58,610 nt of DNA from an uncultured Acidobacteriota bacterium. GTDB taxonomy: Bacteria; Acidobacteriota; Vicinamibacteria; Fen-336; JAGNNV01. Location of the stretch: positions 1-58,610 of the forward strand of contig CAZYEA010000001.1 of NCBI GenBank assembly GCA_964646485.1, given 5' to 3'. This document shows, piece by piece, positions 494 to 37,149 of the stretch. A model generated the notes under the pieces. The model did no database searches. It worked only from the letters and a program-made list of their open reading frames with translations, and had not been told where the DNA came from. The stretch's first letter is position 1; the number at the start of each line of letters is the position of its first letter. Both the position numbers and the translations under genes were made by a program.

Positions 494-2179
494 ATGAAAC
501 GGGTTCTTCTCCTGGGAGGGCCAGGCGAGCTCACCCGCGTGGTGGCGGAGCGCCTGCGCGAAGGCAAAGACGTCGAATCGTGCCAGGTGGTCGACCTCCG
601 GGGTGAAGCCGAGCCGCAACTCCCCGACGCTTCAGGATTCGAGGTCGTCTACTTGGGCCCCGCCATCGGCGAGCGCGGCTCGCCTCCAAGTCCGGAGCGG
701 GCGGAAGCCCGGCTGCGCGCTCTGGCGGACGCGGGCGCGCGGTCGATCATCGTGGTTTCGAGCGCTGCCGTCTTTCCGCCACGGCATCCGCATCCCGGCA
801 TGGTGGATGAGGCTCGTCCGCCCCTGCGCGGCGCCAACGCGACCGCCGACCTTTGGGCCGCTCTCGAAAGCGCGGCCCGGCGCGTCTTCGACGCTCACCC
901 CTCCATCACGCACACCATCGTCCGACCCGCGGCGGTGCCCACCCACGACGGCGATGACTACGTCTCCCGCGTCCTGCGAGGCCGAATCGCGGCGACCTGC
1001 GTGGGGCATGACCCATCCATTCAGCTGCTCAGCGCCTCTGACCTGGGTCGGGCCCTTGCCGCCATCGTCGAATCCGGAAGCGCGGGACTCTTCCACGTGG
1101 TGCCTTCGGGCGTGGTCCCGGTGCACAAAGCCCTGGCCCTCGCTCGGACGCTGCGTGTGCCGCTGCCTTCCTGGCTGCAGCGTCTCGGGCGTTTTGCTCT
1201 GAGCGGGCTGGGTGTCGCACCCTGGGCCGAGGCTGAGCGCCTCCGGTATTCGTCGACCGTCTCGGGCCGGAAGATCGAAGAGTCCATCGGCTTCAGGCCC
1301 CAGATGTCCAGCGCGGAGGTGGCCGCGACATTCGGCGGGCGAGGGGCGGTTCCCGGAGGTTCCGTTCCCTCGTTCGACCCCTACGGCCAGGACAAACAGT
1401 ACATCGGCTGGCTGCATCGCACCATCATGGGCTTTCTGCACAACGTCTGGTGGCGGGTCGAGCTTTCGGGGATCGAGAACGTTCCGCAGCAGGGAGGCGC
1501 CGTGCTGACCGGCGTCCATCGGGGATTCATGCCCTTCGACGGCACCATGCTGCTCTACGACGTGGTCAAGCGGGTGGGTCGATACCCGCGCTTCCTGATC
1601 CACCCGAATCTGGTGAAAGAGGTCTTCCTCGCGGACTTCATCACCCGGCAGGGAGGGGTCATCGCCTGCCGGCAGAACGCCGACTGGGTCTTGCAGCGGG
1701 GCGACCTGCTCGGGTTTTTCCCGGAGGGCGTCGAAGGAGCGTTCAGCTACTACTGGGTCGCCCACCGCCTCTGCGCGGACTTCGGCCGGGACGAGTTCGT
1801 CAAGACCGCGCTCAGAAACCGCGTTCCCATCGTCCCCTTCGTCACCGTGGGGAATGTGGAGATGTTCCCGATGCTCGCGAAGTTCGACTGGGAGTGGTGG
1901 AAGCGGATGACCGGCTGGCCGTGCTTCCCGATCGCTCCTCCTTTTCCGTTGCTGCCCATACCACTCCCCACGAAGTGGCATACCATGATCCTCGAACCGC
2001 TCCACGTCGAGGAGGCTTACGGTCCCGAAGCGGCGAGCGACGAGCAGACGGTCGCGAAGATCGGGAACGAAGTGCGGACGCGCCTGCAGGCGGCCATAGA
2101 CGACATGCGCGCCCGGCGCCGATGGATCTTCTTCGGCTCGATCTTCAAGCCCGCGGCCTCGCCAGTTAAGTTAAGCTGA
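494..2179 (+). CDS. fusion protein: N-terminal NAD(P)-binding SDR/epimerase-like domain plus C-terminal PlsC/LPLAT-type acyltransferase domain
   Basis: 561 aa. N-terminus 'VLLLGGPGELTRVVAERL' is a Rossmann-type Gly-rich turn. C-terminal half has acyltransferase blocks 'GVHRGFMPFDG' (His...Asp) and 'GFFPEGVEG' (FPEG block). Confidence 0.7.
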   Translation: MKRVLLLGGPGELTRVVAERLREGKDVESCQVVDLRGEAEPQLPDASGFEVVYLGPAIGERGSPPSPERAEARLRALADAGARSIIVVSSAAVFPPRHPHPGMVDEARPPLRGANATADLWAALESAARRVFDAHPSITHTIVRPAAVPTHDGDDYVSRVLRGRIAATCVGHDPSIQLLSASDLGRALAAIVESGSAGLFHVVPSGVVPVHKALALARTLRVPLPSWLQRLGRFALSGLGVAPWAEAERLRYSSTVSGRKIEESIGFRPQMSSAEVAATFGGRGAVPGGSVPSFDPYGQDKQYIGWLHRTIMGFLHNVWWRVELSGIENVPQQGGAVLTGVHRGFMPFDGTMLLYDVVKRVGRYPRFLIHPNLVKEVFLADFITRQGGVIACRQNADWVLQRGDLLGFFPEGVEGAFSYYWVAHRLCADFGRDEFVKTALRNRVPIVPFVTVGNVEMFPMLAKFDWEWWKRMTGWPCFPIAPPFPLLPIPLPTKWHTMILEPLHVEEAYGPEAASDEQTVAKIGNEVRTRLQAAIDDMRARRRWIFFGSIFKPAASPVKLS

Positions 2180-2281
2180 TTTCGAGGTGCAGCGATTCGG
2201 TGTTCTCGATAGACGCAGGACCGCTTTGGCCGGCCTTCTGACTCAGACGTCCGGGCTTCGAATCCGCGGGGGAGTCGTGAG

Positions 2282-2509
2282 ATGCCGGTGAGCGTCGAAG
2301 CCATCCAGGAACTGGTGGGGCGGCAGCTCGGCCGGCGCGGCGTCAAGCCCGACGACCATCTGGTGGCCGATCTGGGCGTCGAGTCCATAGACATCCTGAA
2401 TCTGGTGAGGGCGGTCGAGGCGAAGTTCCAGGTCTCGATCAGCGACGATGAAATCGCCGGCCTTCAAACCGTGCGCGATCTCCACGCCGTCGTGCTGAAG
2501 AAGCAGTGA
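2282..2509 (+). CDS. acyl carrier protein (ACP-1)
   Basis: 75 aa with 'ADLGVESIDILNLV' phosphopantetheine-attachment block (Ser in GVES); GGGGGAG Shine-Dalgarno about 7 nt upstream of the ATG. Confidence 0.75.
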   Translation: MPVSVEAIQELVGRQLGRRGVKPDDHLVADLGVESIDILNLVRAVEAKFQVSISDDEIAGLQTVRDLHAVVLKKQ

Positions 2510-2521
2510 GGGCGCCGCAGC

Positions 2522-4108
2522 GTGAGTGAGATCGCGACCCTCGTCGAGATGCTCGAGCGCCGGGTCCAGGCGACGCCCGGAAAGCCCGCCTTTTCGTGGG
2601 AGCGCGAGGAGACAACCTACGAACAGCTGTGGGCCCGCGTCGAACGCTTTGTCGCCCACCTGAAGGGTCTGGGGGTCGCCCCCGGTGATCGCGTGCTGCT
2701 GGTGCTTCCGAACGGGCCCGAGTTCTTCTATGGCTTCTATGCGGTCCTCCTGCGCAGCGCCATCGTGGTGCCGGTGTTCCCGGGTTCCGGCCCCGAGCGC
2801 GTGCTCTCTCGCGCGCGCCACTGCGGAGCGCGGGTGGTGGTGGCCCCCTCGGATACCGAGCCCGGCAAGCTCGAGGAGCTCGGGACCGCCGTCCCTGGAA
2901 GCGAGATCCGGGTCACCACCTTCGCGGAGAGCGCGGCCGCGGCCCCGCACCTCGAGCGCCCCGCGATCGCTTCCGACGACGTGGCCATGCTTCAGTACAC
3001 CTCCGGAAGCACCGGCGATCCCAAGGGCGTTCAGCTCTCTCACCGCGGACTGATCACGAACGTCCGCCAGATGATCGCGGGGATGCGCATCACGGAGGAC
3101 GAGATCTTCGTGAGCTGGCTGCCCGTGTACCACGACATGGGCCTGATCCTCAAGACCATGGTGCCCTTCTATCTCGGGGCTCGCCTGATCCTGCTCCCGA
3201 CGAACCTCACCAACGTCCGCACCTGGCTTCAGGCCATCCAGGATCATCGCGGGACCTTCACCGCCGCCCCCGATTTCGCGTACCGGCTGTGCGTCCGCTC
3301 CATCAAGGATCCGGGCGCCTATGACTTGTCCAGCCTGCGGGTAGCCCTGAACGCGGCCGAACCGGTGCGCGAGTCGACCATCCTCGAGTTCGAGAAGGCG
3401 TTCCGTCTCGACCGGGTGATGGTTGGAGGCTACGGACTCGCCGAGGCCACGGTGGGGGTTTCGATGTGGCCCCCCGGATCGAGGCCGGCCGTTGATCCGC
3501 ACGGTCTTGTCTCGGTGGGCCCGCCCTTTCCCGAGATACAGCTCCAGATCGTGGACGAGGGCCGGCCGCTGCCGCCCCGGGAGATCGGGAGCATCCTGAT
3601 CAAGAGCCCGGCCAACACCCGCGGCTATTGGGAGAACCCCGAGGCGACGGCCGAGATCCGCCGACCCGATGGTTTCATCGACAGCGGAGACCTCGGCTGT
3701 CTCGACGAGGCCGGCAACCTCTACATCGCCGGCCGCAAGAAGAACATCATCATTACCGCGGGGCGAAACGTCGCCCCCCGGGAGCTCGAGGAGATCGCGG
3801 ATTCCTTCAAGGAGATTCGCGGCTCCGCCGCCATCGGGGTCGATCGCGGAAACCTCGAGGGCGAGCAGGCCTACCTCTTCGCCGAGATGCGCCGCCCCCT
3901 TTCGGAGCCGGAAGGAGCCGAGCTGTCGCTCGCCATCGTGGAGAGGATCCACCAGCAGCTGGGCCTGCGCCCAGGCCGCGTCTACATCGTCAAGCCCCGG
4001 ACCATCCCGCGCACCTACAACGGGAAGATCCAATACCCCTCGCTGAGGGCGCGCTACCTGAGCGGCGAGCTCCGTGCCGACGGACAGATCCTCTTCCCCG
4101 AGTATTGA
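2522..4108 (+). CDS. AMP-dependent ligase, fatty-acyl-AMP-ligase (FAAL)-like adenylase
   Basis: 528 aa; adenylation core 'LQYTSGSTGDPKGVQLSH', 'GYGLAEATV', 'SGDLG...GRKKNIIITAGRNV'; GTG start 13 nt after the ACP stop. Confidence 0.85.
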   Translation: MSEIATLVEMLERRVQATPGKPAFSWEREETTYEQLWARVERFVAHLKGLGVAPGDRVLLVLPNGPEFFYGFYAVLLRSAIVVPVFPGSGPERVLSRARHCGARVVVAPSDTEPGKLEELGTAVPGSEIRVTTFAESAAAAPHLERPAIASDDVAMLQYTSGSTGDPKGVQLSHRGLITNVRQMIAGMRITEDEIFVSWLPVYHDMGLILKTMVPFYLGARLILLPTNLTNVRTWLQAIQDHRGTFTAAPDFAYRLCVRSIKDPGAYDLSSLRVALNAAEPVRESTILEFEKAFRLDRVMVGGYGLAEATVGVSMWPPGSRPAVDPHGLVSVGPPFPEIQLQIVDEGRPLPPREIGSILIKSPANTRGYWENPEATAEIRRPDGFIDSGDLGCLDEAGNLYIAGRKKNIIITAGRNVAPRELEEIADSFKEIRGSAAIGVDRGNLEGEQAYLFAEMRRPLSEPEGAELSLAIVERIHQQLGLRPGRVYIVKPRTIPRTYNGKIQYPSLRARYLSGELRADGQILFPEY

Positions 4109-4157
4109 GTCCCCGGCCCGCCCCGGCCAGTCGGGTGACGCCCGAGGCAGTGCGCCG

Positions 4158-4775
4158 ATGAGCCGCGCCGAGATGCTTCGGGCCGTCCAGAACTACCAGA
4201 TCGCGCGGATGCGTTCGACCCACGAAGCGCTCTTCCGATCGCCGGCCTATCGACCACTCTGCGAGTTCTTCCTCGAGGATCTGTACGGTCCTCGGGAAAT
4301 CGGCACGTCCCGTGCGGGGGCCCTTCATTCCCTGGTCGCGGCCCTGCGCCCGGTGCTGCCGGCCTGGATCCACGACGGTGCCCTCGGGCTCATCGACCTT
4401 CACTCGCTCTCCGAGCGGCTCGACGAACGGCTGGCCCGCGTGCTTCTTTCGCGTGGGGCTCCAAGCCCGCTCGAGACCGCGGACTTCGAGTCCGCCTACG
4501 TCGGCTGCGACGACCGCGAGGAGCGTCTCCAGCAGATCGCCCTTTCGGCCGCGGCCACGCGTTTCGGCCATGCGCTCGCCACCCACCCCTCGTCGGCCCG
4601 GCTGCTGGATGGGGCGCGCCGGCTGCGCGGCCTGCCGCGTCTGGAGCCGCTGTTGGCCATGCTGGAGCGAGGTTCGCGCGGCTTCGTTCTGGCCGACGCC
4701 ATCGACCCTTTCGTCGAGGCCATGCGCGCGGGCGAGACCGCGTACCTGAACGGGGTTTACGAGAGAGCGCGATGA
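4158..4775 (+). CDS. conserved-looking hypothetical protein with 'CEFFLEDLYGP' motif
   Basis: ATG at 4158 inside ORF 4074..4775 (the upstream part overlaps the ligase 3' end); helical-looking, G/C-rich third positions. From memory it resembles the RefSeq name 'FFLEELY motif protein'; unverified. Confidence 0.5.
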   Translation: MSRAEMLRAVQNYQIARMRSTHEALFRSPAYRPLCEFFLEDLYGPREIGTSRAGALHSLVAALRPVLPAWIHDGALGLIDLHSLSERLDERLARVLLSRGAPSPLETADFESAYVGCDDREERLQQIALSAAATRFGHALATHPSSARLLDGARRLRGLPRLEPLLAMLERGSRGFVLADAIDPFVEAMRAGETAYLNGVYERAR

Positions 4776-4835
4776 TATTCTCCCCGTCCGCTTTAGCCGA
4801 CCTATTCCCCCTCAGCCTTTGGAGACCAATAGACC

Positions 4836-6620
4836 ATGAGCGAGCCGCAGCCTGACGTCGTGATCCTCGGAGGAGGACTCGCTGGCCAGACCCTGGCCCG
4901 GCATCTGTTGCTCGACACCGACAAGCGGATCCTGATGCTCGAGCGGCGGGACGAGATCCCGTGGTTCCACCAGAAGGTAGGGGAGTCGAGCGTTCAGCTC
5001 GCGGGCCACTACTTCGGCAAAGTCCTCGGGCTCGAGAGCTACCTGCTCCACGAGCATTTCCTGAAGTACAACCTGCGCTTCTACTTCCCGAGCCGGGGGA
5101 GGGACAACACCCGCTTCGAGGACTACGGCCACATCTCGATCCGGCCCTTCTCGAACGTTCCCAGCTACCAGCTCAACCGCAACACGATGGAAGCGGAAAT
5201 CTTCCGGCGGAACAAGGAATCGGACCGCTTCACTGTGGTGACGGGAGTCAAGGATCTCGACGTGGACATCGTCCCCGATGGCGATCACGTCGTCCGCTAC
5301 AAGACCGACGCGGGCTCGGTCACGGTCAACACCCGCTGGGTGGTCGACGCCTCCGGGCGCAACCGTTTCCTGGCCCGGAAATTGGGCCTGCGCCGGCCCA
5401 TGCCCATTCACAACGACACCTTCTTCTGGTGGGTGGAGGGCACGGTCGACATCGAGAAGCTGACCGATCGCTCCCGACAGGAGGTGCGCCTGAAGAAAGA
5501 GCGCGGCACCCTCGGCCATCTCCCGGTCTTCCTCGCCACCAACCACTTCTGCGTCGAAGGGCTGTGGTTCTGGGTGATTCCCCTTCAGGGCAAGACCAGT
5601 CTCGGCCTCGTCTACGACAGCAAAGTCCACAAGCACGAGGACATGAACTCGGTCGAGAAAGCGAACGCGTGGGTCTTCAAGCATTTCCCCCTGTTCGCTC
5701 GCGACCTGCCGAACCGGAAGGTCCTCGACTTCGGGACCATTCGCCAGTACTCCCACAGCTGTGAGCGGACCATCAGTCCGGATCGCTGGGCCATGACCGG
5801 CGAGGCCGGCCGTTTCACCGACCCTCTCTACAGCCCCGGCAGCGACCTGATCTCGACCTACAACACCATGATCGTCGCGGCCATCCAGATGGACGATCCG
5901 GAAGAGCGAACCCGGACCATCGAGACCTACGAGCAGATGATGCGGGCCCTGGCCAACGCCTACGTGCCCAGTTACGGTGTGAGCTACGACTGCCTCGGCG
6001 ACGAAGAGGCTTTCTCCATGAAGTATGCATGGGAGTTGTCCGTCTACTTCATCGCCTACGTCTACCCCTTCATCAACGACCTGTTCTCCGATCGCCGCTT
6101 CCTCATCGGCTTCATGCGCTTCTTCAGCAAGCTGGGTCCGATCAACAACTCCCTGCACAAACTGCTGAGCGATTTCTTCCATTGGAAGAAAGCGCAGAAC
6201 ATGCTGGCGCCGCAGGGCGATCCGATCTTCTTCGATCTCTACGACATCGGCACGCTCAAGGAAGCGGAGAAGTTCTTTTACAAGATCGGCACCGAGGCCG
6301 ACGAGGCCCGCGACGCCCTCTTCGCGCAGCTCGGGCCGCTCGAGGAACTGGCGCGCTTCATCGTGGCCCACATCACCTCCGTCGTGGTGGGCGACCCGCG
6401 CGTCATGGAGAACAAGGCCTTCATCGAGGGGATCGACCTGCGGGGGGAGGGCTTTTCGCTCGACGACCTGCGACGTCGCTGGCAGGAGGTCTCCTCCAAA
6501 GACAGCACCGATCGCTTCATGTGGTCCTTCGATCCCAAGGTGATGAATCGCTTCCGGCACATGCCCAAGGACATGCCTATGACCGCCGCCCCGGCCCAGG
6601 TTGGAGGAATGGCGGGCTGA
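4836..6620 (+). CDS. flavin-dependent halogenase
   Basis: 594 aa; 'VVILGGGLAGQTLA' FAD fold, 'KVGES' lysine block (Lys codon 4974-4976), 'WFWVIP' = WxWxIP signature (5565-5582), 'FTDPLYSPG' = FxxPxxSxG block. Confidence 0.8.
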   Translation: MSEPQPDVVILGGGLAGQTLARHLLLDTDKRILMLERRDEIPWFHQKVGESSVQLAGHYFGKVLGLESYLLHEHFLKYNLRFYFPSRGRDNTRFEDYGHISIRPFSNVPSYQLNRNTMEAEIFRRNKESDRFTVVTGVKDLDVDIVPDGDHVVRYKTDAGSVTVNTRWVVDASGRNRFLARKLGLRRPMPIHNDTFFWWVEGTVDIEKLTDRSRQEVRLKKERGTLGHLPVFLATNHFCVEGLWFWVIPLQGKTSLGLVYDSKVHKHEDMNSVEKANAWVFKHFPLFARDLPNRKVLDFGTIRQYSHSCERTISPDRWAMTGEAGRFTDPLYSPGSDLISTYNTMIVAAIQMDDPEERTRTIETYEQMMRALANAYVPSYGVSYDCLGDEEAFSMKYAWELSVYFIAYVYPFINDLFSDRRFLIGFMRFFSKLGPINNSLHKLLSDFFHWKKAQNMLAPQGDPIFFDLYDIGTLKEAEKFFYKIGTEADEARDALFAQLGPLEELARFIVAHITSVVVGDPRVMENKAFIEGIDLRGEGFSLDDLRRRWQEVSSKDSTDRFMWSFDPKVMNRFRHMPKDMPMTAAPAQVGGMAG

Positions 6621-8049
6621 TGGTCCGCCCTTGAACGAGAGCGAGTCGCTGGTCGAGAGGGCCTTCACCCTTCGCTTTTCCGAGCGAAGCTACGAGGTGC
6701 GGGACGTCGAGGGCAAGGTTCCGGAGTTCGTGCGAGGCACGTACTACAGCAACGGTCCGTCGCGCCACGCCATCGGCCCCCTGCGGTACCGGCACCTGCT
6801 CGACGGGGATGGCATGGTGCGGTCCCTGCGTTTCGAAGATGGCCGGATCCACTTCCAGAATCGCTTCGTGCGCTCGCGCAAGTTCCGCGAGGAAGAGCAG
6901 GCGGGCGCCGCCCTGTTTCGCACCTTCGGAACCCGCTTTCCCGGGGACCGGCTGAATCAGTACGGCGTGGGCATCGAGTCTCCGGTGAACGTGAGCGTCT
7001 GGCGCTTCGCCGGGCGGTTGCTGGCGTTTGGAGAGCAGGGATTGCCCTGGGAGCTCGATCCCTTGACCCTCGAGACCCGAGGCCTCTTCACCTTCGGTGG
7101 CTACCTGAACGAGATCAGTCCCTTCTCCGCGCACCCGAAGATCGACGCGGTGAGCGGCGACCTTTTCAATTTCGGCTTGTCCTTTTCGAACGAACGACCG
7201 GTGGTGAACCTCTATCGCTTCGACGAAAGCGGCCGACTCGTCTATCGACGCCGTGAGCCCGTGCCCGATCCCTGCTCGGTCCACGATTTCTGCCTGAGCC
7301 CGAGCTACGTGATCGTCTATCTCAACGGCTTCGTCCTCGACATCGCCGCGATCCGTGAGGGCGGCAGCACGATCCAGGAATCCCTCAGCTTCGAGCCGGA
7401 GCGAGGGTCCCGTCTGTTGATCGCGGATCGGGAGACCGGGCGCCGGGTGGCCGAGGTGCCGGTGGGCTCCTCTTACTCGCTGCATACGATCAACGCCTTC
7501 GAGGAGGCGGGGCGTCTCATCTACGACGTGATCGAACTCGACGAGCCGGTCTATGGCGACTACGAGGTGATTCCCGAGATCTTCACCGCGGTGAAGCCGG
7601 GTCGCCCCGTTCGCTATGTGATCGACACCGGAACCTGGCGGGTGATCGATCGAATCGCCCTCCCCTCCGCCACGTCATTGGACTTTCCCGCCATCGACCC
7701 GCGGCGCGCCACCCTTCCAAACGACGACTTCTGGATGCTGAATCTGTCGAAGACCGGGCAGCCGGGCCGCAAGTACTTCGACGAACTGGCTCACGGGAGC
7801 TTCGCGAGCCGGACCATCACCGACACCTTCCGTTTGCCGGAGCGGTTCTATTTCGGGAGCGAGCCGACCTTCCTGCCCGGGCCGGACCACGCTTCTTCGG
7901 GGCTGATCCTTTTGAAGCGCTTCGATGCCGAGCGCGAGCGGGACGCCTACCTGCTCTTCGATGCGCGCTCGGTGGCCGCGGGTCCCCTTGCCGTGCTGCA
8001 CTGCGAGGAAGCGACGCCTCCCTGCTTCCACGGTTCCTACTACCCGTAG
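6601..8049 (+). CDS. carotenoid oxygenase family (carotenoid/stilbene cleavage dioxygenase-like)
   Basis: 482 aa; 'GKVPEFVRGTYYSNGP' N-terminal block and four candidate iron-ligand His ('SAHPKID','VHDFCLS','LHTINAF','CFHGSYY'). Start uncertain: TTG 6601 overlaps the halogenase 3' end by 20 nt, and TTG 6631 is an alternative. Confidence 0.8.
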   Translation: MEEWRADGPPLNESESLVERAFTLRFSERSYEVRDVEGKVPEFVRGTYYSNGPSRHAIGPLRYRHLLDGDGMVRSLRFEDGRIHFQNRFVRSRKFREEEQAGAALFRTFGTRFPGDRLNQYGVGIESPVNVSVWRFAGRLLAFGEQGLPWELDPLTLETRGLFTFGGYLNEISPFSAHPKIDAVSGDLFNFGLSFSNERPVVNLYRFDESGRLVYRRREPVPDPCSVHDFCLSPSYVIVYLNGFVLDIAAIREGGSTIQESLSFEPERGSRLLIADRETGRRVAEVPVGSSYSLHTINAFEEAGRLIYDVIELDEPVYGDYEVIPEIFTAVKPGRPVRYVIDTGTWRVIDRIALPSATSLDFPAIDPRRATLPNDDFWMLNLSKTGQPGRKYFDELAHGSFASRTITDTFRLPERFYFGSEPTFLPGPDHASSGLILLKRFDAERERDAYLLFDARSVAAGPLAVLHCEEATPPCFHGSYYP

Positions 8050-8060
8050 CGCCCCCGGGC

Positions 8061-11251: not shown

Positions 11252-12477
11252 GAGCGCGGGCGGGGTTCGATTCCCGGGCGGTTGCGACCGTACAACTCGT
11301 GGGCGGCCACGAACTCGCCGCTCGCAATCGCCGCGCCGATCGACAACTCCCCGGCGAGCAGACTCGCGGCCATGATCTCGGCGAGCCGGGCGGCTCGTCC
11401 CGGTCCGAAGCAGTCCAGCATCTGCAGGCACTCGCGACTGGTTCCGAGTGCGGTCCCCCCGCCGATGGTGGCCACGGTCAGGGAAGGCAGGGTCACCGAG
11501 GCGTAGAAGTCCCCGTCCTCGAGCACCTCCATGCTGTTGACCCCCACTGCGGCGTTGGCGACGTTCGCCACATCCTGGCCGAGGGCGATGAACATGGCGG
11601 TGAGGCCGTTGGCGAAATGGCCGTTGTAGCCGATGGTGCCCGCATGAATCGAGCCGAGCACGGTGCGATGCCAGAGGTCCGCGAGTTGCGCCGGTTCGAC
11701 GTGAAGATGGGTGCGGAGCAGCGATGGCTTGATGCGAGCGCCCGCCACCACGCGCTTCCCCTTGCCGCCGCCCAGCAGATGGCCGGAGGACTTCTTCTCC
11801 GACTCGAAGCCGCTGAAGACGTAGAAGCGCCGGGCCTTGCTGTGCTGCAGGATCCAGGCGCAGGCCTTGTTGGCGGCCTTGACGATCATGTTCATGCCAT
11901 GAGCGTCCCCGGTGAAGAAGGCGAAATCGACGATCACTTCACGTCCGATGACCTGAGCTTCGAGGCGAAGCAAGCGTCCGTGCCGGGTCGTCGATTCGGC
12001 CTCCGCGCGGATCGCCTCGAAGTGAGAGGGCAGTTCGCGCGCGAAGTCATCGGCTTCGGCGACGCCGTCGAAGACGAAGGTCGGGCACACCCGGTTTTCG
12101 TCCCGGGTGACTCGGGTCGTGACCCCCCCGGCGCGGGAGAGGGTCACCATTCCGCGTTCATACGAGCGGACCAGCGCTCCCTCGGTGGTGGCGAGGGGCA
12201 CGTAGAAGGTGCCTTGGGCGTGCTGCCCGTGAATCAGCAGCGGGCCGGCCACCCCCAAAGGCATCTGCACGCTGCCGATCGGGTTTTCGATGTTGCCGCG
12301 CAGACTCTCCGCGTCCAGAGTGGTGGCGGCGACCTGGCGCAACTCGACGCCGCACTTCGCCTCGAGCCAGGCGCGGCGTTTGTCAACCTGCTGCCGGGTG
12401 TAACCCTGCCGGGTCATCCGGGGAACGAGTTCCAGAGACAGGTTCTCGTCGATTACCGGCGCGGCGTCGTCCGACAA
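11248..12477 (-). CDS. HMG-CoA reductase homologue (catalytic domain only)
   Basis: 409 aa; 'IENPIGSVQMPLGVAGPL', 'PLATTEGALV', 'GDAHGMNM', 'ATIGGGT', C-terminal 'AAHE' His. No membrane domain. Confidence 0.85.
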   Translation of the reverse strand: MSDDAAPVIDENLSLELVPRMTRQGYTRQQVDKRRAWLEAKCGVELRQVAATTLDAESLRGNIENPIGSVQMPLGVAGPLLIHGQHAQGTFYVPLATTEGALVRSYERGMVTLSRAGGVTTRVTRDENRVCPTFVFDGVAEADDFARELPSHFEAIRAEAESTTRHGRLLRLEAQVIGREVIVDFAFFTGDAHGMNMIVKAANKACAWILQHSKARRFYVFSGFESEKKSSGHLLGGGKGKRVVAGARIKPSLLRTHLHVEPAQLADLWHRTVLGSIHAGTIGYNGHFANGLTAMFIALGQDVANVANAAVGVNSMEVLEDGDFYASVTLPSLTVATIGGGTALGTSRECLQMLDCFGPGRAARLAEIMAASLLAGELSIGAAIASGEFVAAHELYGRNRPGIEPRPRS

Positions 12478-12493
12478 GCTCCCCAGGGCCTTC

Positions 12494-13720
12494 CTAGCTT
12501 TCGGTCGTTCGAGAGATCACGACCGCGCAGTGCTGTCCGTCCCAACCCATGGAGTAGAGCAAGAGGTTCTGGCCCATCACGGGCCGGGGCTCGGGTCCGG
12601 CGAGAGGGAAGGGGAAGGCCTGAGAAACCTCGCGCAGCCCGCGAATGCCAGGCTGCTGGCCCGTCCGCAGGGACTCGATCGCCACCACCGCCTGCAGCCC
12701 GCCATCCGCGCCGAGGGTCTCGCCCAAAGAAGCCTTGATCGCCGTGATCGGCAGCGCCTGGGCCCGCCCGCCAAGGGCGGCGCCGAGCCCCTTCGCCTCG
12801 AGTGCGTCGAGTGGCCCTCCACTCGCCGAGGCGCTCACCCCGCCGATCGAGTCGGGCCCGAGTCCCGCGGCCGAAAGCGCCCCGCCCACCGCGCAGGCCG
12901 TGGCGCGCACCGACTGCTCCTCGTTGTCTCCGCGGAACGGGTCGAAGGAGACGCCGCACCCCTTGACCTCAGCCAGAACGCGGGCGCCCCGGCGCGCGGC
13001 CAGGTCCGCGCTCTCCAGCATGAGCAGCCCGGCGCCTTCGCCGGGGAGGAAACCTCCGCGGTCTTTCCCGAAGGGAGCAGGGTCGGCGCCTTCGCCGGCC
13101 AGCCGAGCGGCCCGCTCCAGGCTGATGAAGGACTGAAAGCACAACTCTTCGGCGCCGCCCGCAAGCAGCACATCGCAACGACCCGACTCGATGAGTCCGG
13201 CGGCGTAGGCGAGCGCACGCAGTCCGGAGGTCTGGCTCGTCGCGATGGTCGAGTTGATTCCGCGAAGGCCGTGCCAGATCGCGGTCTGACCCGCGGCCGC
13301 GTTGATCACGGTGTTGGCGAAATCGAGAGGGCTCGCATAGCTCGGTCCTTCCACCATCGCGTGCCGATCGAATTCGGCGATGGTGCCGACGCTGCCGTAC
13401 ATGGTTCCGAGGACGAGCCCGATCTCCTGGCCGGCTCTCGCCTCCGCGGTCCAGCCGCTGTCCTCGAGGACGAGGTGGGCGGCGGTGGCGACGAGACGGG
13501 CGGTGCGGTCGAGCGGCCGCATGTTCTTCTTGCCGAGATAGCTCTTCGCATCGAAGCCGGCTATCTCTCCGCCTCTTCGCTGGGCAAGCCCAGCGGTGTC
13601 GAACAACTCGATGGCGCGCAGACCGCTCTTGCCCTCGCACAGGGCCTGGTGGACGAGGGTCGGATGGTCGCCGAGCGAGCAGAGCAGCCCCCGGCCCGTG
13701 ATCACCACCCGGGCCTTCAT
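12494..13720 (-). CDS. ketosynthase-like chain-length-factor (KS-beta/CLF) partner, active-site Cys replaced by Gln
   Basis: 408 aa, collinear with the upstream KS. Position 163 is Gln ('IATSQTSG', CAG at 13232-13234 on the minus strand). Both catalytic His positions are absent ('SFDPFRG','VSASASGG'). Confidence 0.8.
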   Translation of the reverse strand: MKARVVITGRGLLCSLGDHPTLVHQALCEGKSGLRAIELFDTAGLAQRRGGEIAGFDAKSYLGKKNMRPLDRTARLVATAAHLVLEDSGWTAEARAGQEIGLVLGTMYGSVGTIAEFDRHAMVEGPSYASPLDFANTVINAAAGQTAIWHGLRGINSTIATSQTSGLRALAYAAGLIESGRCDVLLAGGAEELCFQSFISLERAARLAGEGADPAPFGKDRGGFLPGEGAGLLMLESADLAARRGARVLAEVKGCGVSFDPFRGDNEEQSVRATACAVGGALSAAGLGPDSIGGVSASASGGPLDALEAKGLGAALGGRAQALPITAIKASLGETLGADGGLQAVVAIESLRTGQQPGIRGLREVSQAFPFPLAGPEPRPVMGQNLLLYSMGWDGQHCAVVISRTTES

Positions 13721-14943
13721 CGTCCTCCCTCGTAGCGTTTCAAGATGAGAGATGCGTTGTTGCCCCCGAACGCGTATGCGTTGTTCATGGCCACGTTCAC
13801 CCGGCGCTCGCGCGCGTGGTTCGGAACGTAGTCGAGGTCGCAGTCCGGGTCTTTGGTCTCGTAGTTGATCGTGGGTGGGACCCGGCTGCGCTCGATGGCG
13901 AGCGCGCAGATGGCGGTCTCGATGGCCGAGGCCGCGCCCATGGTGTGCCCGAGCATCGACTTGGCCGAACTGATGGGGATCCGCGGAGCGGCCTCGCCGA
14001 AGACGCGCTTGATGGAAATCGTCTCCAGGCGATCGTTGGTCGGTGTGCCCGTACCGTGGGCGCTGATGTAATCGACCTCCTCGGGGCGCACGCCCGCGTC
14101 GGCCAGGGCCGAGCGCATGGCGCGCGCGGCGCCCTCACCTTCGGGGTGAGAGGCGGTCATGTGGTGGGCGTCGCAGGAAAGGCCGTAGCCTACGAGTTCG
14201 GCGTAGATGCGCGCGCCGCGGCGCTCGGCGAGGTCCGCCGGTTCGAGCACCAGCACCGCGGCTCCCTCGCCGGGAACCATGCCGCGTCGGTTCAGATCGA
14301 AGGGCTGGCACCGTTCCGGCGCGATGGCGCCGAGCCGCGCGAATCCGGTGTAGGTGATTCTCGAAAACGAGTCCGATCCGCCCGCGAGCATCATGTCCGC
14401 GGCGCCCGAGCGCAGGTATTCCATGGCGTTGGCGGCCGCGTAGTTCCCGGCGGCGCACGCGGTCGGGATCATGGTGTTAGGGCCGGCGAAACCGAGGGCC
14501 GCGGCCATGCTCGCGGGAATGGAACCGCAGGGGTAGCGGGTGACGAGCTCGGGGCCTATGGCGCGAAGGTCGCCCTTGAGGAGGTTGTCGGTGTAGGTCT
14601 CCACCTCGCGAGGCTCGCCCGAGGTGGTGCCCATCGACACGCCGGCGCGCGTCGGATCGAAGCGTTCGGCGTCGATCCCCGCGTCTTTGAGGGCCCGGGT
14701 CGCGGCCACGATCGCGAACTGCGACGCCCGACCCACCGAAGCCAGGTCGAGACGGCTCTTCGTTCCTTCGGGCGTGAAGCCCGTCACCTCACCGCCGATG
14801 TGGACGCTGTAGTCCTTCGTGTCGAACGAAGCCACCGGCTTGATGCCGGAGCGCCCCTCCAGAAGTGCGTCCCAGAACGTTTCGACGTCGGAACCGATGG
14901 ATGTCACCAGCCCCAGGCCGGTCACCACGACCCGTCTGGTCAT
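13717..14943 (-). CDS. beta-ketoacyl-ACP synthase (KAS II / KS-alpha type)
   Basis: 408 aa; Cys163 in 'IPTACAAGNYA' (TGC at 14455-14457 on the minus strand), His in 'CDAHHMT' and 'ISAHGTGTP', 'KSMLGHTMGA', C-terminal 'NAYAFGGNNASL'. Confidence 0.9.
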   Translation of the reverse strand: MTRRVVVTGLGLVTSIGSDVETFWDALLEGRSGIKPVASFDTKDYSVHIGGEVTGFTPEGTKSRLDLASVGRASQFAIVAATRALKDAGIDAERFDPTRAGVSMGTTSGEPREVETYTDNLLKGDLRAIGPELVTRYPCGSIPASMAAALGFAGPNTMIPTACAAGNYAAANAMEYLRSGAADMMLAGGSDSFSRITYTGFARLGAIAPERCQPFDLNRRGMVPGEGAAVLVLEPADLAERRGARIYAELVGYGLSCDAHHMTASHPEGEGAARAMRSALADAGVRPEEVDYISAHGTGTPTNDRLETISIKRVFGEAAPRIPISSAKSMLGHTMGAASAIETAICALAIERSRVPPTINYETKDPDCDLDYVPNHARERRVNVAMNNAYAFGGNNASLILKRYEGGR

Positions 14944-15209
14944 GACCCCGAAACGATGGTGGCTTGCTCCGCCTGCTTCTTGATGACCATGTTCACGGCG
15001 TCCTCGACGCTGCCGAGGCTCCCCATCTCATCTTCGCTGAGGCGAAGCTTGTAGGCATGCTCCACATGCACCCCGATCTCGATCATGGCCAGCGAGTCGA
15101 GTTCGAGGTCCTCGCGAAAGGACGCGTTGTCCGCGATCTCCTCGGGAACGAGATCGCTCACTTTGCCGATCAGGCCCTTAACGACGCGTCGAATCTCCTC
15201 GCGATCCAT
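14940..15209 (-). CDS. acyl carrier protein (ACP-2)
   Basis: Trimmed to ATG 15209 with AGGAGA Shine-Dalgarno; 'DLELDSLAMIEI' DSL phosphopantetheine site; stop overlaps the KS start (ATGA). Confidence 0.85.
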   Translation of the reverse strand: MDREEIRRVVKGLIGKVSDLVPEEIADNASFREDLELDSLAMIEIGVHVEHAYKLRLSEDEMGSLGSVEDAVNMVIKKQAEQATIVSGS

Positions 15210-15283
15210 TCTTATCTCCTGGCTGAACGTTACCAAAGAAAACGACCAGCTCCACGACCTGCCGCCCAGGATTTGAGGGCGGT

Positions 15284-15589
15284 CTAGCGCAGGGCTTTGC
15301 CGAAGCCTTCAACCCACTCGCGGCCCACCCGGTAGACCCCGCGAAAGACTCCCCCAAACTGCTCCTCCACCACGTTCGCCACCACATCGAAAGGAGTCGT
15401 GGACAGGGGCTTGGGGTCGAGCCCGGGTTCCTCCGCCCTCCCGGGCCGGAATTCGAGGAGGTGTGCCGCCTGCTGGGCGCCGAGTGCGGTGAGGGCCCAG
15501 GAGACGCGGATCACCGAGGAGCCGAGCCTCGTCCAGACGCGGTCGCCCGATCGCGAGTCGACATCGCTGCGCATGGGCGTCAAAGGCAT
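15284..15589 (-). CDS. small hypothetical protein, first gene of the minus-strand operon
   Basis: 101 aa; GGGAGAG Shine-Dalgarno directly upstream of ATG 15589; G/C-rich third positions; no recognised motif. Confidence 0.45.
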   Translation of the reverse strand: MPLTPMRSDVDSRSGDRVWTRLGSSVIRVSWALTALGAQQAAHLLEFRPGRAEEPGLDPKPLSTTPFDVVANVVEEQFGGVFRGVYRVGREWVEGFGKALR

Positions 15590-15717
15590 CTCTCCCTAGT
15601 CCGGTCCACCATGGATCCGGTTCCTCGAAATTGTAACGCTCGCGTTCGAAAAAGCTGTGCGGAGACGAGCCGAAGCCCCTCCGGCCCGAGGTGTAAGCTG
15701 ATCCAATTACTGAGCGA

Positions 15718-15745
15718 CCTCGATCAGCTCGGCCGTTGATCGAGG
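15718..15745. promoter_or_regulatory. perfect 9-bp inverted repeat (CCTCGATCA-N10-TGATCGAGG) in the divergent intergenic region
   Basis: Read directly: arms at 15718-15726 and 15737-15745, about 22 nt upstream of ATG 15768 and just before the GGAGGAGAGGAGAG ribosome-binding stretch. Confidence 0.3.
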
Positions 15746-15767
15746 TTTCTGGAGGAGAGGAGAGTGT

Positions 15768-17453
15768 ATGGCGGGAAAGGAGTCAAAGGCCGAGGAGCTC
15801 CGAGAAGCCCTGCGCCTTGTGCGCAGCGAGCGACGAGCGACTCTCGACCTCGTGGCCGGCCTCGACGAGGCCCGGGCCCGGCGAGCCCCCGCGGATGGCG
15901 GGTGGTCCGTCGCCCAGGTGATGGATCACCTCATCAAGACCGATGGCGTCTACCGGCTTGAAATCGGCCGGCTCCTCGATTTGAGGGCCGCGGGGCGTCC
16001 GCCCGTGATCGAAGTGGGCCTTCGTGAACTCAATACCCGTCCTTTCTTCGTGCCCGCCGCCCTGCTTCCGCATATGGACGTACCCTTCAGGCTCGCGAAT
16101 CGCCTCATCCCGTCGGCGCTTCGGGAGTCTCTGGCCGGCACTGCGGTGATTCCGTTCCAGGCCCCGGACGAGGCCGCGCCGGCGGTGGACCGGCCGCTCG
16201 GCGATTTGCGCCTCGATGCGGCGGCCTCCACCCAGCAGATCGAGACCATGCTCGCCGGCCAGGATGTGTCCGACATGATTCTCGATCACCCCATGCTGGG
16301 GCGGCACACGGTTCCCTCACTGCTCAGAATCCTGGCCCGGCACGAAAACCGGCATCAGGCCCAGATCTCCAGGATCATCGCCTCGGACCCGACGACTGGC
16401 GCGGTCCCCGTCGCCGGTCTCACGCGCGGCGCCCGGCCGGCTTCGGAGTCGACGACGAGCGCCTCGGATCTCACGAGCGGGTTCGCTCACGACGCCGAGG
16501 AGGCCCTCAAGGCCGGGCGCCAGATCGTCTCGTGGTGGCGAGACAAGACGCTCAGGGAGGAGTTGAAGCTCTTTCCGCTCAAACCCGCTCATCGGCCCTA
16601 CTTCGAGATGCAGGGCTTCTTCGATTCGATCCACTTCATCGGCCAGATGAAGCCGACCTCCATGATGGGGTGCCTTCAGACTCATCGCTTCGCCAGGCGG
16701 CGGCCTCCCACCGAAGGCGCGACCGCCCATCTCGAGTCCTTCATCGACGAGCATTTTCTCGTCCGCTCTTACCAGGTCCGGCCCGATGGCTCGCCGGGCG
16801 GGTTTCGCTATCGGCCGATCTGCTACAAGGAGAAGGACGGCCGCCTGGTGGAGCCCGTGGATCGCGAATCGCTCGGGATGAATCTGACCGATCTTCGTAA
16901 GGGCCGCGAATGGGGAGTGCTGCGCGTCGACATTCTCGACTTCCTCCGGGTCAACCCCTCCCTGGCCCCCTACGACAAGACTCTCTCCCGCTTCATCCGG
17001 CAGTCCGCTTACGTCGTGGTCCACGAGGACATGGCGATTGAAACGGCGAGGGCGCCCAAGGACGTGATCGCGGAAAGGCGATTCGGCTACGCGTTCCTTC
17101 CCCGGTCCGTCGAACCCAACTTCTTCGGCTTCGGCCCCGGGAAATTCGGAGCCGCGATCAAGCAGTGGAGGTTTCTCCTCTACATAAACGGGGATGTCGA
17201 AGTGCAGGTCTCTTTCCTGGTCGCCCCCCGCAGCGAGCGCGTGATGGACTTCGGGGGCTTCGATCCCGTCTACGCCGGAATCAAGATGGCGAACGTGCTC
17301 TCCCTGGGAGCCTTTGGCCTGAATGAGAGCGGCCACGCCGCCCTCGATCACGTCTTTCTGGAGCACCACGGCACGGTTCACGCGGCCATCGTCCAGGGTA
17401 TGGCGGAGATTTGGGAGGGTCAACGCTGGATGCCGTCCTTCGGCGCCTGGTAG
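15768..17453 (+). CDS. DinB-superfamily N-terminal domain fused to a roughly 330-aa domain of unknown function
   Basis: 561 aa; N-terminal '[14 protein letters not shown] ... [15 protein letters not shown]' resembles DinB/DinB_2 His-containing helices. I cannot assign the C-terminal two thirds. Confidence 0.6.
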
Positions 17454-17457
17454 ATCC

Positions 17458-18906
17458 ATGACCCTCGAAAGCGCAGGCGTCTCCACCCGAGACGGCGTCT
17501 TCATCGGCGGGGCGTGGGTTGCTTCCACCGGAGTGGAGCGCATAGAGGTCATCAACCCGTCCACCGAGGCGTCCCTCGGTTCGGTTCCGAAGGGCACCCC
17601 TGAAGATGTCGACCGCGCGGTCGCGGCCGCGCGCGCGGCCTTCCCGGAATGGTCCGCGACCAGCCTGTCCCGCCGGATCGAGATCCTGAACGCGATCGCG
17701 AAGGGCCTCGCCGCGCGGCGAGTGGAGATCGGAGATCTGATCGCCTCGGAGATGGGCATGCCTCTCAAGTTGGCGAGGATGATCCAGGCCGGACTGCCCC
17801 CGACGCATTTCGAGAACAACGCGCGGCTCCTCGCCGCCTTCCCCTTCGTTCATGACGAAGGTTCCACCCGCATCGTGAGCGAGCCGGTGGGGGTCTGCGG
17901 GCTCATCACCCCCTGGAACTTCCCCCTTCACCAGATCGCGGGCAAAGTGGCGCCCGCCCTTGCCGCCGGCTGCACGCTGGTGCTCAAGCCGAGCGAAGTG
18001 GCCCCGCTCAACGCGATCGCGCTGGCCGAAGTGGTGGAGGCGTCGGGGCTGCCGGCAGGCGTCTTCAATCTGGTGCACGGATCCGGTCCGGTGGTGGGCG
18101 AGGCCATGGCCGCCCATCCCGGCATCGACATGATCTCGTTCACCGGATCAACCCGGGCCGGGATCTCCGTGTCGCGCGCCGCCGCGGGCTCGGTGAAGCG
18201 GGTGACCCTGGAGCTCGGCGGCAAGTCCGCGAACATCATCCTCGACCACCCTGACCTGCCCCGCGCGGTGCGGGCCGGCGTCAACGATTGCTTCGTCAAC
18301 AGCGGCCAGGCCTGCAATGCGCCCACCCGCATGCTGGTGCCCTCGTCGAGGTACCAGGAGGCGGTCGAGATCGCGAGGCGGGTCGCCCGCGAGGTGCGGG
18401 TGGGTGATCCTTTCGAAATCGGCGTCACCATGGGTCCCCTGGTGAGCGCCGCCCAGTTCGAGCGGGTGCAGGCATACATAAGGAACGGCATCGGGGAGGG
18501 AGCCGAACTCGTCGAAGGCGGCCTCGGACGTCCGGAGGGGATCTCCCGGGGCTTCTTCGCGCGGCCCACGGTTTTTGCCGGGGTCCGCAACGGCATGACG
18601 ATCGCTCGCGAGGAGATCTTCGGTCCCGTCCTGTGCCTCTTGCCCTTCGAGAACGAAGACGACGCGGTCCGAATCGCCAACGAAAGCGACTATGGCCTCG
18701 CCGCCTATGTGTCGGGCCCTCCGGAGATCGCGGGAGCGATCGCGGCCCGGCTGCGGGTGGGACAGGTCACCTTGAACCGGGCCCGCTTCGACGCCATGGC
18801 CCCCTTCGGCGGCTACAAGCAGTCGGGGAACGGTCGCGAGTTCGGTGAATGGGGGCTGCGCGAGTTCCTCGAGACCAAGGCCATCATCGGTTTCGGCAGC
18901 GCGTGA
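17458..18906 (+). CDS. NAD(P)+-dependent aldehyde dehydrogenase
   Basis: Trimmed to ATG 17458 (4 nt after the upstream stop); 'ITPWNFPL', '[10 protein letters not shown]', '[13 protein letters not shown]' (catalytic Cys), 'EEIFGPVL'. Confidence 0.9.
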
Positions 18907-24233: not shown

Positions 24234-24255
24234 CCGGTTTGAGCCCGACTCCGCC

Positions 24256-29420: not shown

Positions 29421-29454
29421 AGTCGAGCCTTCTCTAAAAGCGAGGACAGTCCAA

Positions 29455-37127: not shown

Positions 37128-37149
37128 GGGCGGGGGGGAGGGCCTTTCG

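Follow-up and report, generated by a model that had tools for sequence, protein, structure and literature searches.

What is made by the gene cluster at positions 494-18906 of contig CAZYEA010000001.1 (assembly GCA_964646485.1), and do its genes belong together at all? The contig, from an uncultured Acidobacteriota bacterium, was analysed over a stretch of 58,610 nucleotides, which is called the window here. The cluster combines a ketosynthase (KS), a chain length factor (CLF) and acyl carrier proteins (ACPs) with a homologue of HMG-CoA reductase (HMGR), a CrtI-family flavoenzyme, a halogenase and a stilbene-type oxygenase. An earlier note on this DNA described an unusually arranged KS/CLF-based lipid cluster with these parts, and that description stands. 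The best explanation, held with modest confidence and built on sequence comparison, is that a chain would be assembled by the KS/CLF pair on its own ACP, released as an alcohol or aldehyde by a reductase of the FcrA type, and then tailored and esterified. The gene content, the conservation of the neighbourhood, the family placements and the active-site residues reported below are direct observations. Genes were called from a six-frame listing of open reading frames (ORFs) together with Pfam, NCBIfam and PDB searches, and gene overlaps were read directly in the sequence.

The answer begins with the reductase gene (11248-12477, minus strand). Its product matches PF00368 (HMG-CoA_red, 361 bits on Pfam) and is class-I-like, with an archaeal HMGR as the closest solved structure (277 bits); it scores below the NCBIfam HMGR cut-off (TIGR00533, 325 vs 442 bits). 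The FcrA enzymes, which share this fold, reduce fatty acyl-CoA to alcohol and do not reduce HMG-CoA (Grossi et al. 2025, ISME J, PMC11948995). They retain the catalytic Glu, Lys, Asp and His of HMGR, with three pocket positions altered: Glu replaces Ser684, small residues replace Lys735 (evidently the residue given as "Lys795"), and bulky ones replace Leu862; some members are fused to an ACP, and PlsC-like genes may adjoin fcrA (PMC11948995). The HMGR homologue had been regarded as unprecedented in such a setting. FcrA-like relatives were published in 2025, so this no longer holds; the "reduced" step proposed with it survives in the form of a reductive chain release.

Relatives of the reductase were collected by an exhaustive search of 1.84 billion cluster representatives (3474 matches), and the best 150 were aligned (MAFFT --auto). 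The canonical Ser/Lys/Leu signature of HMGR was present in only 4 of these 150 nearest representatives; the other 146 carry Glu, Asp, Arg, Gln or Phe at Ser684, and Phe, Tyr or Trp at Leu862. The catalytic residues E64, K228, D302 and H393 of the window reductase (equivalent to Glu559, Lys691, Asp767 and His866) are invariant in its subfamily. The Ser684 equivalent is F221, an invariant Phe seven residues before the catalytic Lys, in a loop of the xS(G/N)FxSEKK type shared with the non-canonical relatives and not of the SGNxCxDKKP type. The Leu862 equivalent is F389, an invariant aromatic position. The enzyme is FcrA-like at two of the three diagnostic pocket positions. The subfamily is tight, with 57-100% identity within and at most 49% to other representatives; the nearest relatives outside it (43-49% identity) carry N-terminal extensions. 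Among them, P0148, P0168 and P0193 are adenylase-ACP-reductase fusions of about 1000 aa, and P0163 fuses an ACP to the reductase; this argues that the fold serves as a carrier-protein-linked thioester reductase.

On its residues, the window reductase falls among the FcrA-like proteins as a tight subfamily of its own. With FcrA it shares the HMGR fold, the retained catalytic residues, the lost Ser684, the aromatic residue at Leu862, ACP-fused forms among its nearest relatives, a PlsC-like gene close by, and a lack of mevalonate genes (here, within the 58.6-kb window). It differs in having no N-terminal Lad or ACP domain and in sitting inside a KS/CLF operon. Judged by these features, it is not a mevalonate enzyme, and by operon context acyl-ACP is its likely substrate.

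Among the wider relatives, HMGR-derived domains were also seen in other fusions (P0123-P0127, P0133, P0138, P0141, P0128, P0160, P0166, P0170, P0173, P0186). Some of their N-termini look, by eye, like PilZ (RxxxR ... DxSxxG) or a response-regulator receiver; others have a C-terminal part of about 400 aa resembling, again by eye, an aminoglycoside/choline-kinase-type phosphotransferase. One protein of 1454 aa joins the adenylase-ACP-reductase arrangement to a phosphotransferase-like C-terminal extension. These fusions hint at c-di-GMP-regulated and alcohol-phosphorylating variants.

The second part of the question is whether the genes belong together. One genome per species was scanned with the HMGR homologue, and relatives were found in at least 584 species genomes, chiefly of Acidobacteriota; close relatives at 57-87% identity also occur in very many metagenomic proteins. 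The host species include Acidobacteriota that rank among the most abundant bacteria in soil, as well as Poribacteria living as symbionts of sponges. The best 80 of the at least 584 genomes are all metagenome-assembled genomes (MAGs). Among these 80, the acidobacterial hosts belong to the Vicinamibacteria, Thermoanaerobaculia, Pyrinomonadaceae, Holophagales and Acidobacteriaceae, and the other hosts to the Zixibacteria, Latescibacterota, Poribacteria, Nitrospinota, Verrucomicrobiota and Planctomycetota. Around the HMGR relatives 85 loci were fetched, in which homologues of the window proteins were counted by tblastn. Gene maps of these loci from ORF clustering carry shadow ORFs, the DNA being of high GC content; weight was placed on the tblastn counts and on called genes. 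The CrtI-like gene was present beside the HMGR relative in 76 of the 85 loci, the CLF in 66, the KS in 64, the LPLAT fusion in 47 and the ACP encoded at 14940-15236 in 42. FG-GAP/ASPIC genes were found in 34, the oxygenase in 26, the halogenase in 25 and the adenylase in 4; the second ACP (2282-2509), the FFLEELY-motif gene and the aldehyde dehydrogenase (ALDH) gene were found in 3 each.

The core order ACP-KS-CLF-HMGR-CrtI is invariant in the gene maps, and was seen in Acidobacteriota, Nitrospinota, Poribacteria, Latescibacterota, Verrucomicrobiota and others. Downstream of the core there are three arrangements: LPLAT followed by ABC1, a small protein and a second ABC1; two FG-GAP/ASPIC genes followed by LPLAT and ABC1; or an optional LPLAT followed by halogenase and oxygenase. 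A LuxR-type response regulator lies upstream of the cluster in many loci, and a FabG-like SDR, a FabA-like dehydratase, a TetR regulator or an ECF sigma factor occurs as an occasional extra in a few. The nearest relative of the window is L001, a Vicinamibacteria MAG with the whole arrangement and an extra ApeP/FabA-like dehydratase gene between the LPLAT and ACP genes. The reported lack of ketoreductase (KR) and dehydratase (DH) genes is correct for the window, but not for the family, given the L001 dehydratase and the few loci with FabG-like or FabA-like genes.

Several Thermoanaerobaculia loci carry two tandem sets, KS-CLF-HMGR-halogenase-oxygenase and KS-CLF-HMGR-CrtI-LPLAT-ABC1. Since each set has its own reductase, this enzyme is part of the KS/CLF module rather than of housekeeping metabolism; the halogenase-oxygenase and CrtI-LPLAT genes are alternative downstream units. 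The earlier note had raised the question whether the linkage of HMGR homologue, KS/CLF and CrtI-like enzyme recurs across phyla, and it does so in these 85 loci. Because the co-occurrence extends over several phyla, the adjacency is conserved and not a product of chance, and the neighbourhood is not fortuitous. High-identity synteny to a biosynthetic gene cluster (BGC) with a known product, which had been named as a finding that would overturn the proposal, was not found. The region encodes one member of a lipid pathway that is modular in make-up, occurs widely and has so far not been characterised.

What chain might this core build? The KS (13717-14943, minus strand) has an intact Cys/His/His triad. 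The CLF (12494-13720, minus strand) carries TSQTSG, with Gln in place of the active-site Cys as read before, and has lost the His residues. The best PDB match of the KS is chain B of 9S5H/9S5I (495 bits), followed by the ishigamide KS (353 bits) and FabFs (about 340 bits); against TIGR03150 (fabF) it scores 450 bits, under the cut-off of 494. The best PDB match of the CLF is chain C of the same entries (242 bits). Chain C of 9S5H has Val at the active-site Cys position, and the homologues of chain B are all from Brocadiales. On these indirect grounds, the preprint giving no PDB codes, 9S5H/9S5I is almost certainly the anammox amxFabF2/amxFabFmut pair; a literature search for the two codes yielded no relevant paper. 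These two proteins form a KS/CLF-like heterodimer, decarboxylate malonyl-ACP only as the heterodimer, and, when assayed by crosslinking, favour short chains (Granatino et al., bioRxiv 10.64898/2026.05.19.726425).

In anammox bacteria, this pair is encoded in Cluster I (Kuenenia kuste3603-3608), a candidate ladderane cluster with amxACP, amxFabZ, amxFabF2, amxFabFmut, a phytoene-dehydrogenase homologue and a B12-radical S-adenosylmethionine (SAM) enzyme; the ladderane product itself is unproven. The comparison locus used here (L088) has the order ACP, FabZ, KS, CLF, phytoene-dehydrogenase homologue, B12-radical SAM. The window KS shares 54% identity with amxFabF2 of this locus, the CLF 34% with amxFabFmut, and the CrtI-like protein 34% with the phytoene-dehydrogenase homologue (over 482 aa, 286 bits). 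The dedicated ACP (ACP 2; 14940-15236, minus strand; PF00550), whose best family and PDB matches are AcpM, shares 30% with amxACP. The CrtI-like flavoenzyme (9677-11251, minus strand; PF01593/PF13450) reaches only 67-79 bits against true CrtI-type structures, and falls in one subfamily with the kuste3607-type "phytoene dehydrogenase homologue" of Cluster I. The kinship of the ACP-KS-CLF-flavoenzyme core with Cluster I had gone unnamed in the comparison with known systems made before.

The two systems have in common this core and its order, that is, an ACP, a KS, an inactive KS partner and a CrtI-family flavoenzyme; an amxFabZ/ApeP-like dehydratase also accompanies some relatives of the window cluster (amxFabZ-like in 4 of the 85 loci). 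They differ in that the window family has no radical SAM gene and places an FcrA-type reductase between the CLF and the flavoenzyme. The window CLF has Gln where the anammox proteins have Val or Thr, and the window adds LPLAT, ABC1, halogenase and oxygenase genes. The hosts also differ, being Acidobacteriota and other non-anammox phyla. By these comparisons, the window shares a four-gene core with the candidate ladderane cluster, minus the presumed cyclisation enzyme.

Homology of ACP, KS, CLF and flavoenzyme to Cluster I might suggest that a ladderane-like cyclised lipid is made, as an automated "ladderane" BGC call would imply. Such a pathway is given almost no credence here and was rejected, because no radical-SAM gene is present: a homologue of the Cluster I B12-radical-SAM enzyme was found neither in the window region nor in any of the 85 loci. 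The Gln of the CLF, in place of Val/Thr, and the non-anammox hosts also speak against it.

The same flavoenzyme subfamily bears on a second alternative, a genuine isoprenoid or carotenoid cluster. There, the HMGR would lead to mevalonate, the CrtI-like enzyme and the oxygenase would act on carotenoids, and the genes resembling fatty acid synthase (FAS) would supply an ester acyl group. Although the HMGR, CrtI and CCO families do occur here together with UbiB-like proteins, and a basic residue is kept at the Lys735 position, this is very improbable. Phe stands at the equivalents of both Ser684 and Leu862, a kind of substitution by which FcrA differs from HMGR, and the duplicated KS-CLF-HMGR sets tie the reductase to the synthase. 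No mevalonate, prenyltransferase or phytoene synthase gene was found in the 58.6-kb window by Pfam and NCBIfam scans. Moreover, the homologous anammox flavoenzymes kuste3336 and kuste3607 showed no phytoene desaturase activity in vivo (PMC4790861). A true mevalonate HMGR was rejected on the F/R/F pocket signature, on the score below the HMGR cut-off, and on the lack of mevalonate genes in the window.

The presence of KS, Gln-bearing CLF and ACP also recalls the minimal set of type II aromatic polyketide synthases. However, no cyclase or aromatase family was found in the window by Pfam, and the KS is not actinorhodin-like; the actinorhodin KS (1tqy_A) scores 276 bits, under the FabFs and amxFabF2. 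The frame in which the cluster was first read is that of the aryl-polyene, xanthomonadin and flexirubin pigments. In a pigment pathway of this kind, an adenylated acid on an ACP would be extended to a polyene by the KS/CLF, halogenated, cleaved or reduced, and esterified as in xanthomonadin or flexirubin. In favour of it, the window does encode a stilbene-type oxygenase, a halogenase of the type that depends on carrier proteins, an LPLAT, and an adenylase accompanied by an ACP; the nearest relative L001 adds the ApeP/ApeI-like dehydratase. Those pigment clusters likewise contain a KS/CLF heterodimer, ACPs, an adenylase, an LPLAT-type acyltransferase and sometimes a halogenase, and their product is, like the one proposed here, probably membrane-associated.

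The affinities of the synthase point elsewhere. The KS is nearest to amxFabF2, followed by the ishigamide KS and FabFs at about 340-350 bits; the ApeO/ApeC structures (7F28, 6QSP) lie outside the best 60 PDB matches of both KS and CLF. The NCBIfam polyketide-KS model PRK07103 gives 222 bits against a cut-off of 445. An aryl-polyene (APE)-type synthase was rejected on these KS affinities. KR, LolA-like and MMPL genes were not found in the window, which has instead a proposed reductive release and a CrtI-family enzyme. The adenylase, ACP 1 and FFLEELY-motif genes, present in only 3-4 of the 85 loci, form a module confined to this lineage and lie outside the conserved logic. An aryl-polyene-like pigment is considered quite unlikely, and the pigment frame of the earlier note is not upheld.

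How might the chain be esterified? The first gene of the plus-strand operon (494-2179) encodes an LPLAT/PlsC-type acyltransferase (PF01553, about residues 300-545) behind a degenerate domain of extended-SDR fold (about residues 1-285); the motifs HRGxxPxD and PEGxxGAF are invariant. The SDR domain has no Pfam support in the window protein itself, and relatives of the fusion give PF01370/PF13460 matches and weak DAGAT matches. No sequence relative of the fusion was found in the PDB. An AlphaFold2 (AF2) model (pLDDT 88.9) was matched by Foldseek to epimerases, SDR39U1 and the myxalamid R domain. The position of YxxxK is taken by W121xxxE125, and there is no conserved Gly motif across the family. 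Because both motifs are absent, the SDR-like domain is probably non-catalytic. Of the SDR-LPLAT fusion first proposed, the LPLAT and the SDR fold are borne out, but the catalytic YxxxK is missing. The possibility that this domain is an alkyl-dihydroxyacetone-phosphate (alkyl-DHAP) reductase was rejected, since the catalytic Tyr and Lys are absent.

The acyltransferase fusion brings in an ether-lipid or wax-ester pathway, in which the PlsC-like fusion would use a fatty alcohol as in the myxobacterial ElbD/ElbE system, or as with FcrA and a WS/DGAT enzyme. This would be a special case of the best explanation and not an exclusive alternative; taken by itself, it is rated as fairly unlikely. In domain content the window parts correspond to ElbD (adenylase, ACP, reductase, PlsC-like), with ElbE as the counterpart of the epimerase-type SDR (PMC9131029). 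PlsC-like genes stand beside fcrA, and ether-lipid roles have been proposed for these pairs (PMC11948995); the weak DAGAT matches of the LPLAT relatives fit as well. However, an AGPS homologue was not found, catalytic residues are missing from the SDR-like domain, and such a pathway would give no account of the CrtI-like enzyme, the halogenase-oxygenase pair or the dedicated KS/CLF.

The likeness to ElbD/ElbE, in which an adenylase, an ACP, a thioester reductase, a PlsC-like acyltransferase and an epimerase-type SDR act on fatty chains, is one of domain content and not of sequence homology. The window reductase is HMGR-derived and not of the SDR or fatty acyl reductase (FAR) type, and the functions lie on separate genes instead of one multidomain protein. 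The SDR-like domain is degenerate here, and a dedicated KS/CLF and a flavoenzyme are added. Identity with the myxobacterial elb operon was rejected, as elbA-E are without KS/CLF, HMGR and CrtI-like genes; the relation is an analogy only.

The best explanation, a KS/CLF-built chain with FcrA-type release, can be put as a sequence of steps. The steps, their order and the nature of the product are proposed here from the genes. The FabF-derived KS/CLF heterodimer would serve the dedicated ACP. The Gln-bearing CLF would decarboxylate malonyl-ACP 2, so that chain priming would be independent of FabH, and the KS would elongate the chain. Because the operon usually has no KR, DH or enoyl reductase, the beta-carbon reductions would probably be carried out by housekeeping FAS-II enzymes. 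The FcrA-type reductase would then release the chain with NAD(P)H, either by four-electron reduction to a primary alcohol or by two-electron reduction to an aldehyde. The CrtI-family flavoenzyme, the most constant neighbour of the reductase, would most likely alter the unsaturation of the released or still-bound chain. The pseudo-SDR-LPLAT fusion would esterify the alcohol, in a wax-ester-like way, or move the acyl chain onto a glycerolipid, and the ABC1/UbiB-like and small proteins would handle the hydrophobic product at the membrane.

Optional tailoring would fall to the halogenase and the translationally coupled oxygenase. The genes gained in this lineage, for an adenylase, a second ACP, the FFLEELY-motif protein and an ALDH, would plausibly serve to activate a second acid as acyl donor, perhaps the oxidised oxygenase product. 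In the most speculative version, ALDH, adenylase and ACP 1 might turn an aldehyde derived from the oxygenase into an ACP-bound donor for the LPLAT. As already held in the earlier note, the product class is not predictable from sequence.

Several observations weigh against this reading. The third diagnostic position, equivalent to Lys735, is R271 in the window reductase and Arg, Lys or His across its subfamily, whereas the characterised FcrAs have a small residue there. The Ser684 equivalent is Phe and not Glu as in the FcrA of N. pharaonis. The retained Arg could indicate a substrate with a polar or anionic group instead of a plain fatty chain. In about one tenth of the loci, the HMGR-CrtI pair occurs without nearby KS/CLF genes, so a dedicated synthase may not be the source of the chain in every case. 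Since all of the 80 listed loci are from MAGs, the cluster cannot yet be linked to lipid chemistry.

The remaining parts of the cluster are tailoring and accessory genes. The flavin-dependent halogenase (4836-6620, plus strand) is of the PltA/CndH/Bmp2-like type. All its top PDB matches are FADH2-dependent halogenases; GGGLAG, K77 and WFWVIP, the WxWxIP motif noticed earlier, are conserved, and K77 aligns to K76 of CndH. K77, WFWVIP and GxAxRFxDPLYSPG are invariant in 21 relatives, which also have a conserved C-terminal extension of about 220 aa. By these residues the halogenase is genuine-looking. Characterised halogenases of the PltA/CndH/Bmp2 type act on carrier-bound substrates.

The oxygenase (6601-8049, plus strand; PF03055, 313 bits) is of the carotenoid/stilbene-cleavage dioxygenase type (RPE65/CCO), with weak matches to lignostilbene dioxygenase families. 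Its four His residues, also read before, are His178, His228, His294 and His476, and are conserved in relatives. Wherever the halogenase gene is present (25 of the 85 loci), it lies directly before the CCO gene. The pair is an optional tailoring module, found in about 30% of loci.

The accessory module of this lineage begins with ACP 1 (2282-2509, plus strand; PF00550). The adenylase (2522-4108, plus strand; PF00501, 289 bits) resembles fatty acyl-AMP ligases (FAALs), its best PDB matches being 7r7e, 3kxw and 3pbk, with the N-domain matched only. The FFLEELY-motif protein (4074-4775, plus strand; NCBIfam NF047641/DUF8198, 128.6 bits against a cut-off of 55) carries the variant FFLEDLY. Its homologue in L001 has 209 aa, and the true start of the gene is probably near 4155; no relevant paper on this family was found in the literature search. 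The NAD(P)-dependent ALDH (17458-18906, plus strand; PF00171, 509 bits) is also a lineage-specific accessory gene, and reached no NCBIfam equivalog cut-off. It follows a gene (15768-17453, plus strand) in which a DinB_2 domain (PF12867) is joined to a C-terminal domain of about 330 aa that is uncharacterised. In L010, L052, L062, L066 and L076, from distant Acidobacteriota, the two halves of this fusion are encoded by genes of their own, within the cluster or next to it; both seem to be recurrent accessory parts of the system.

The ABC1/UbiB-like protein (8061-9680, minus strand; PF03109) has an atypical kinase fold and C-terminal transmembrane helices; it scores 89 bits against TIGR01982 (UbiB), under the cut-off. 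The gene after LPLAT encodes an ABC1 protein in about 30 loci. A small conserved hypothetical protein of 101 aa (15284-15589, minus strand) had no family match in Pfam or NCBIfam. It shares 49% identity with its L001 counterpart, and is weakly similar to small proteins lying between ABC1 genes in L003, L038 and L074. A conserved block of ABC1, small protein, second ABC1 and further genes of unknown family follows LPLAT in L003/L020, L005, L007, L011, L012/L087 and L074. The small protein of this block (126-154 aa) is not clearly separable from a family of about 360 aa, for which no Pfam or NCBIfam match was found. A patatin-like gene stands after the block in L003; the patatin-like gene of the window is distant (51757-52893).

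The layout of the cluster agrees with what had been read from the letters. All 15 genes listed before were recovered at 494-18906, and the ATGA overlaps at 14940, 13717, 11248 and 9677 were confirmed. These overlaps fix the true starts of two genes with longer ORFs, at 11251 for the CrtI-like gene and at 9680 for ABC1. The two operons meet tail to tail across 11 nt (8050-8060), with the convergent stops within 8047-8063. The DinB_2-fusion and ALDH pair (15768-18906) is divergent from the minus-strand operon, again as described; the ALDH start (17458) lies just past the DinB stop, hence the two genes do not overlap.

Directly 3' of the cluster (19061-34274, plus strand; Pfam), five membrane-anchored FG-GAP/UnbV_ASPIC proteins are encoded in an array together with TPR and multihaem-cytochrome/TPR proteins. 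Families of this array flank or interrupt the cluster in 34 of the 85 loci, from several phyla including distant ones, which suggests a functional or regulatory link to the cluster. Further on, a carbon-nitrogen hydrolase (37036-38145) and a protein of 853 aa whose sequence contains a spermidine-synthase-like domain (41984-44545) are apparently unrelated to it.

In related loci, FG-GAP/UnbV_ASPIC genes between the CrtI-like and LPLAT genes contain an in-frame TGA at one conserved position, and gene callers split these proteins in two. It was seen in L086 (=L014), at 14726 and 17254, and in L009, L021, L022, L031, L034, L036, L044, L049, L056, L057 and L082. The context is ...ANGWI(T/S)xKxxDDL-TGA-LP(F/Y)xxSAVAH..., and the stop was TGA in all 18 of the 18 motif matches with a stop codon there. 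At 16 nt past the TGA there is a hairpin, G(C/U)GC-GGUC-GC(G/A)C, which resembles the apical loop of the selenocysteine insertion sequence (SECIS) of E. coli fdhF; synonymous wobble positions in it have changed in a compensatory way (10 sequences vs 6). The window and L001 homologues have Glu (GAG) at this position, not Cys. No SECIS family was detected at these sites by an Rfam scan. From these features, it looks like a selenocysteine-containing FG-GAP/ASPIC protein family in related loci.

Relatives of single parts of the pathway are already on record, namely FcrA (2025), flavin halogenases, CCOs and, in a 2026 preprint, the amxFabF heterodimer. For the combination of KS/CLF-ACP, HMGR-derived reductase and amxPDH-like flavoenzyme, together with the LPLAT/ABC1 and halogenase/oxygenase modules and the wide occurrence beyond anammox bacteria, no description was found, in a literature search whose incomplete coverage makes this an absence of evidence. 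Searches on HMGR with ketosynthase, chain length factor and Acidobacteria, on the six-gene combination, and on HMGR with aryl polyene returned nothing relevant. Surveys of "ladderane" BGCs offered only unexplained ladderane-type calls in Verrucomicrobia. The present results link the HMGR-derived fatty acyl reductases (2025) with the anammox chain-length factor (2026), for which no connecting paper was found. They also urge caution with the labels "HMG-CoA reductase", "phytoene desaturase" and "ladderane BGC" for such genes.

For the enzymes themselves, the operon context suggests that this reductase subfamily acts on a dedicated ACP-bound chain. For anammox bacteria, the presence of the core without radical SAM in many non-anammox phyla narrows the possible role of this core. 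A tentative and on the whole doubtful extension is that the cluster family might be the non-anammox sister of the candidate ladderane Cluster I. An ancient ACP-KS/CLF-flavoenzyme unit would then make an unusual unsaturated chain, which an HMGR-derived reductase would release as an alcohol, and which would be halogenated and cleaved in some lineages. If this were true, the core described as unique to anammox would not be unique, and its chemistry would be accessible in easier organisms or hosts. It would also account for many of the "ladderane" BGC calls made in metagenomes from soil and sponges, and an undescribed lipid class would exist in Acidobacteriota, Poribacteria, Verrucomicrobiota and others.

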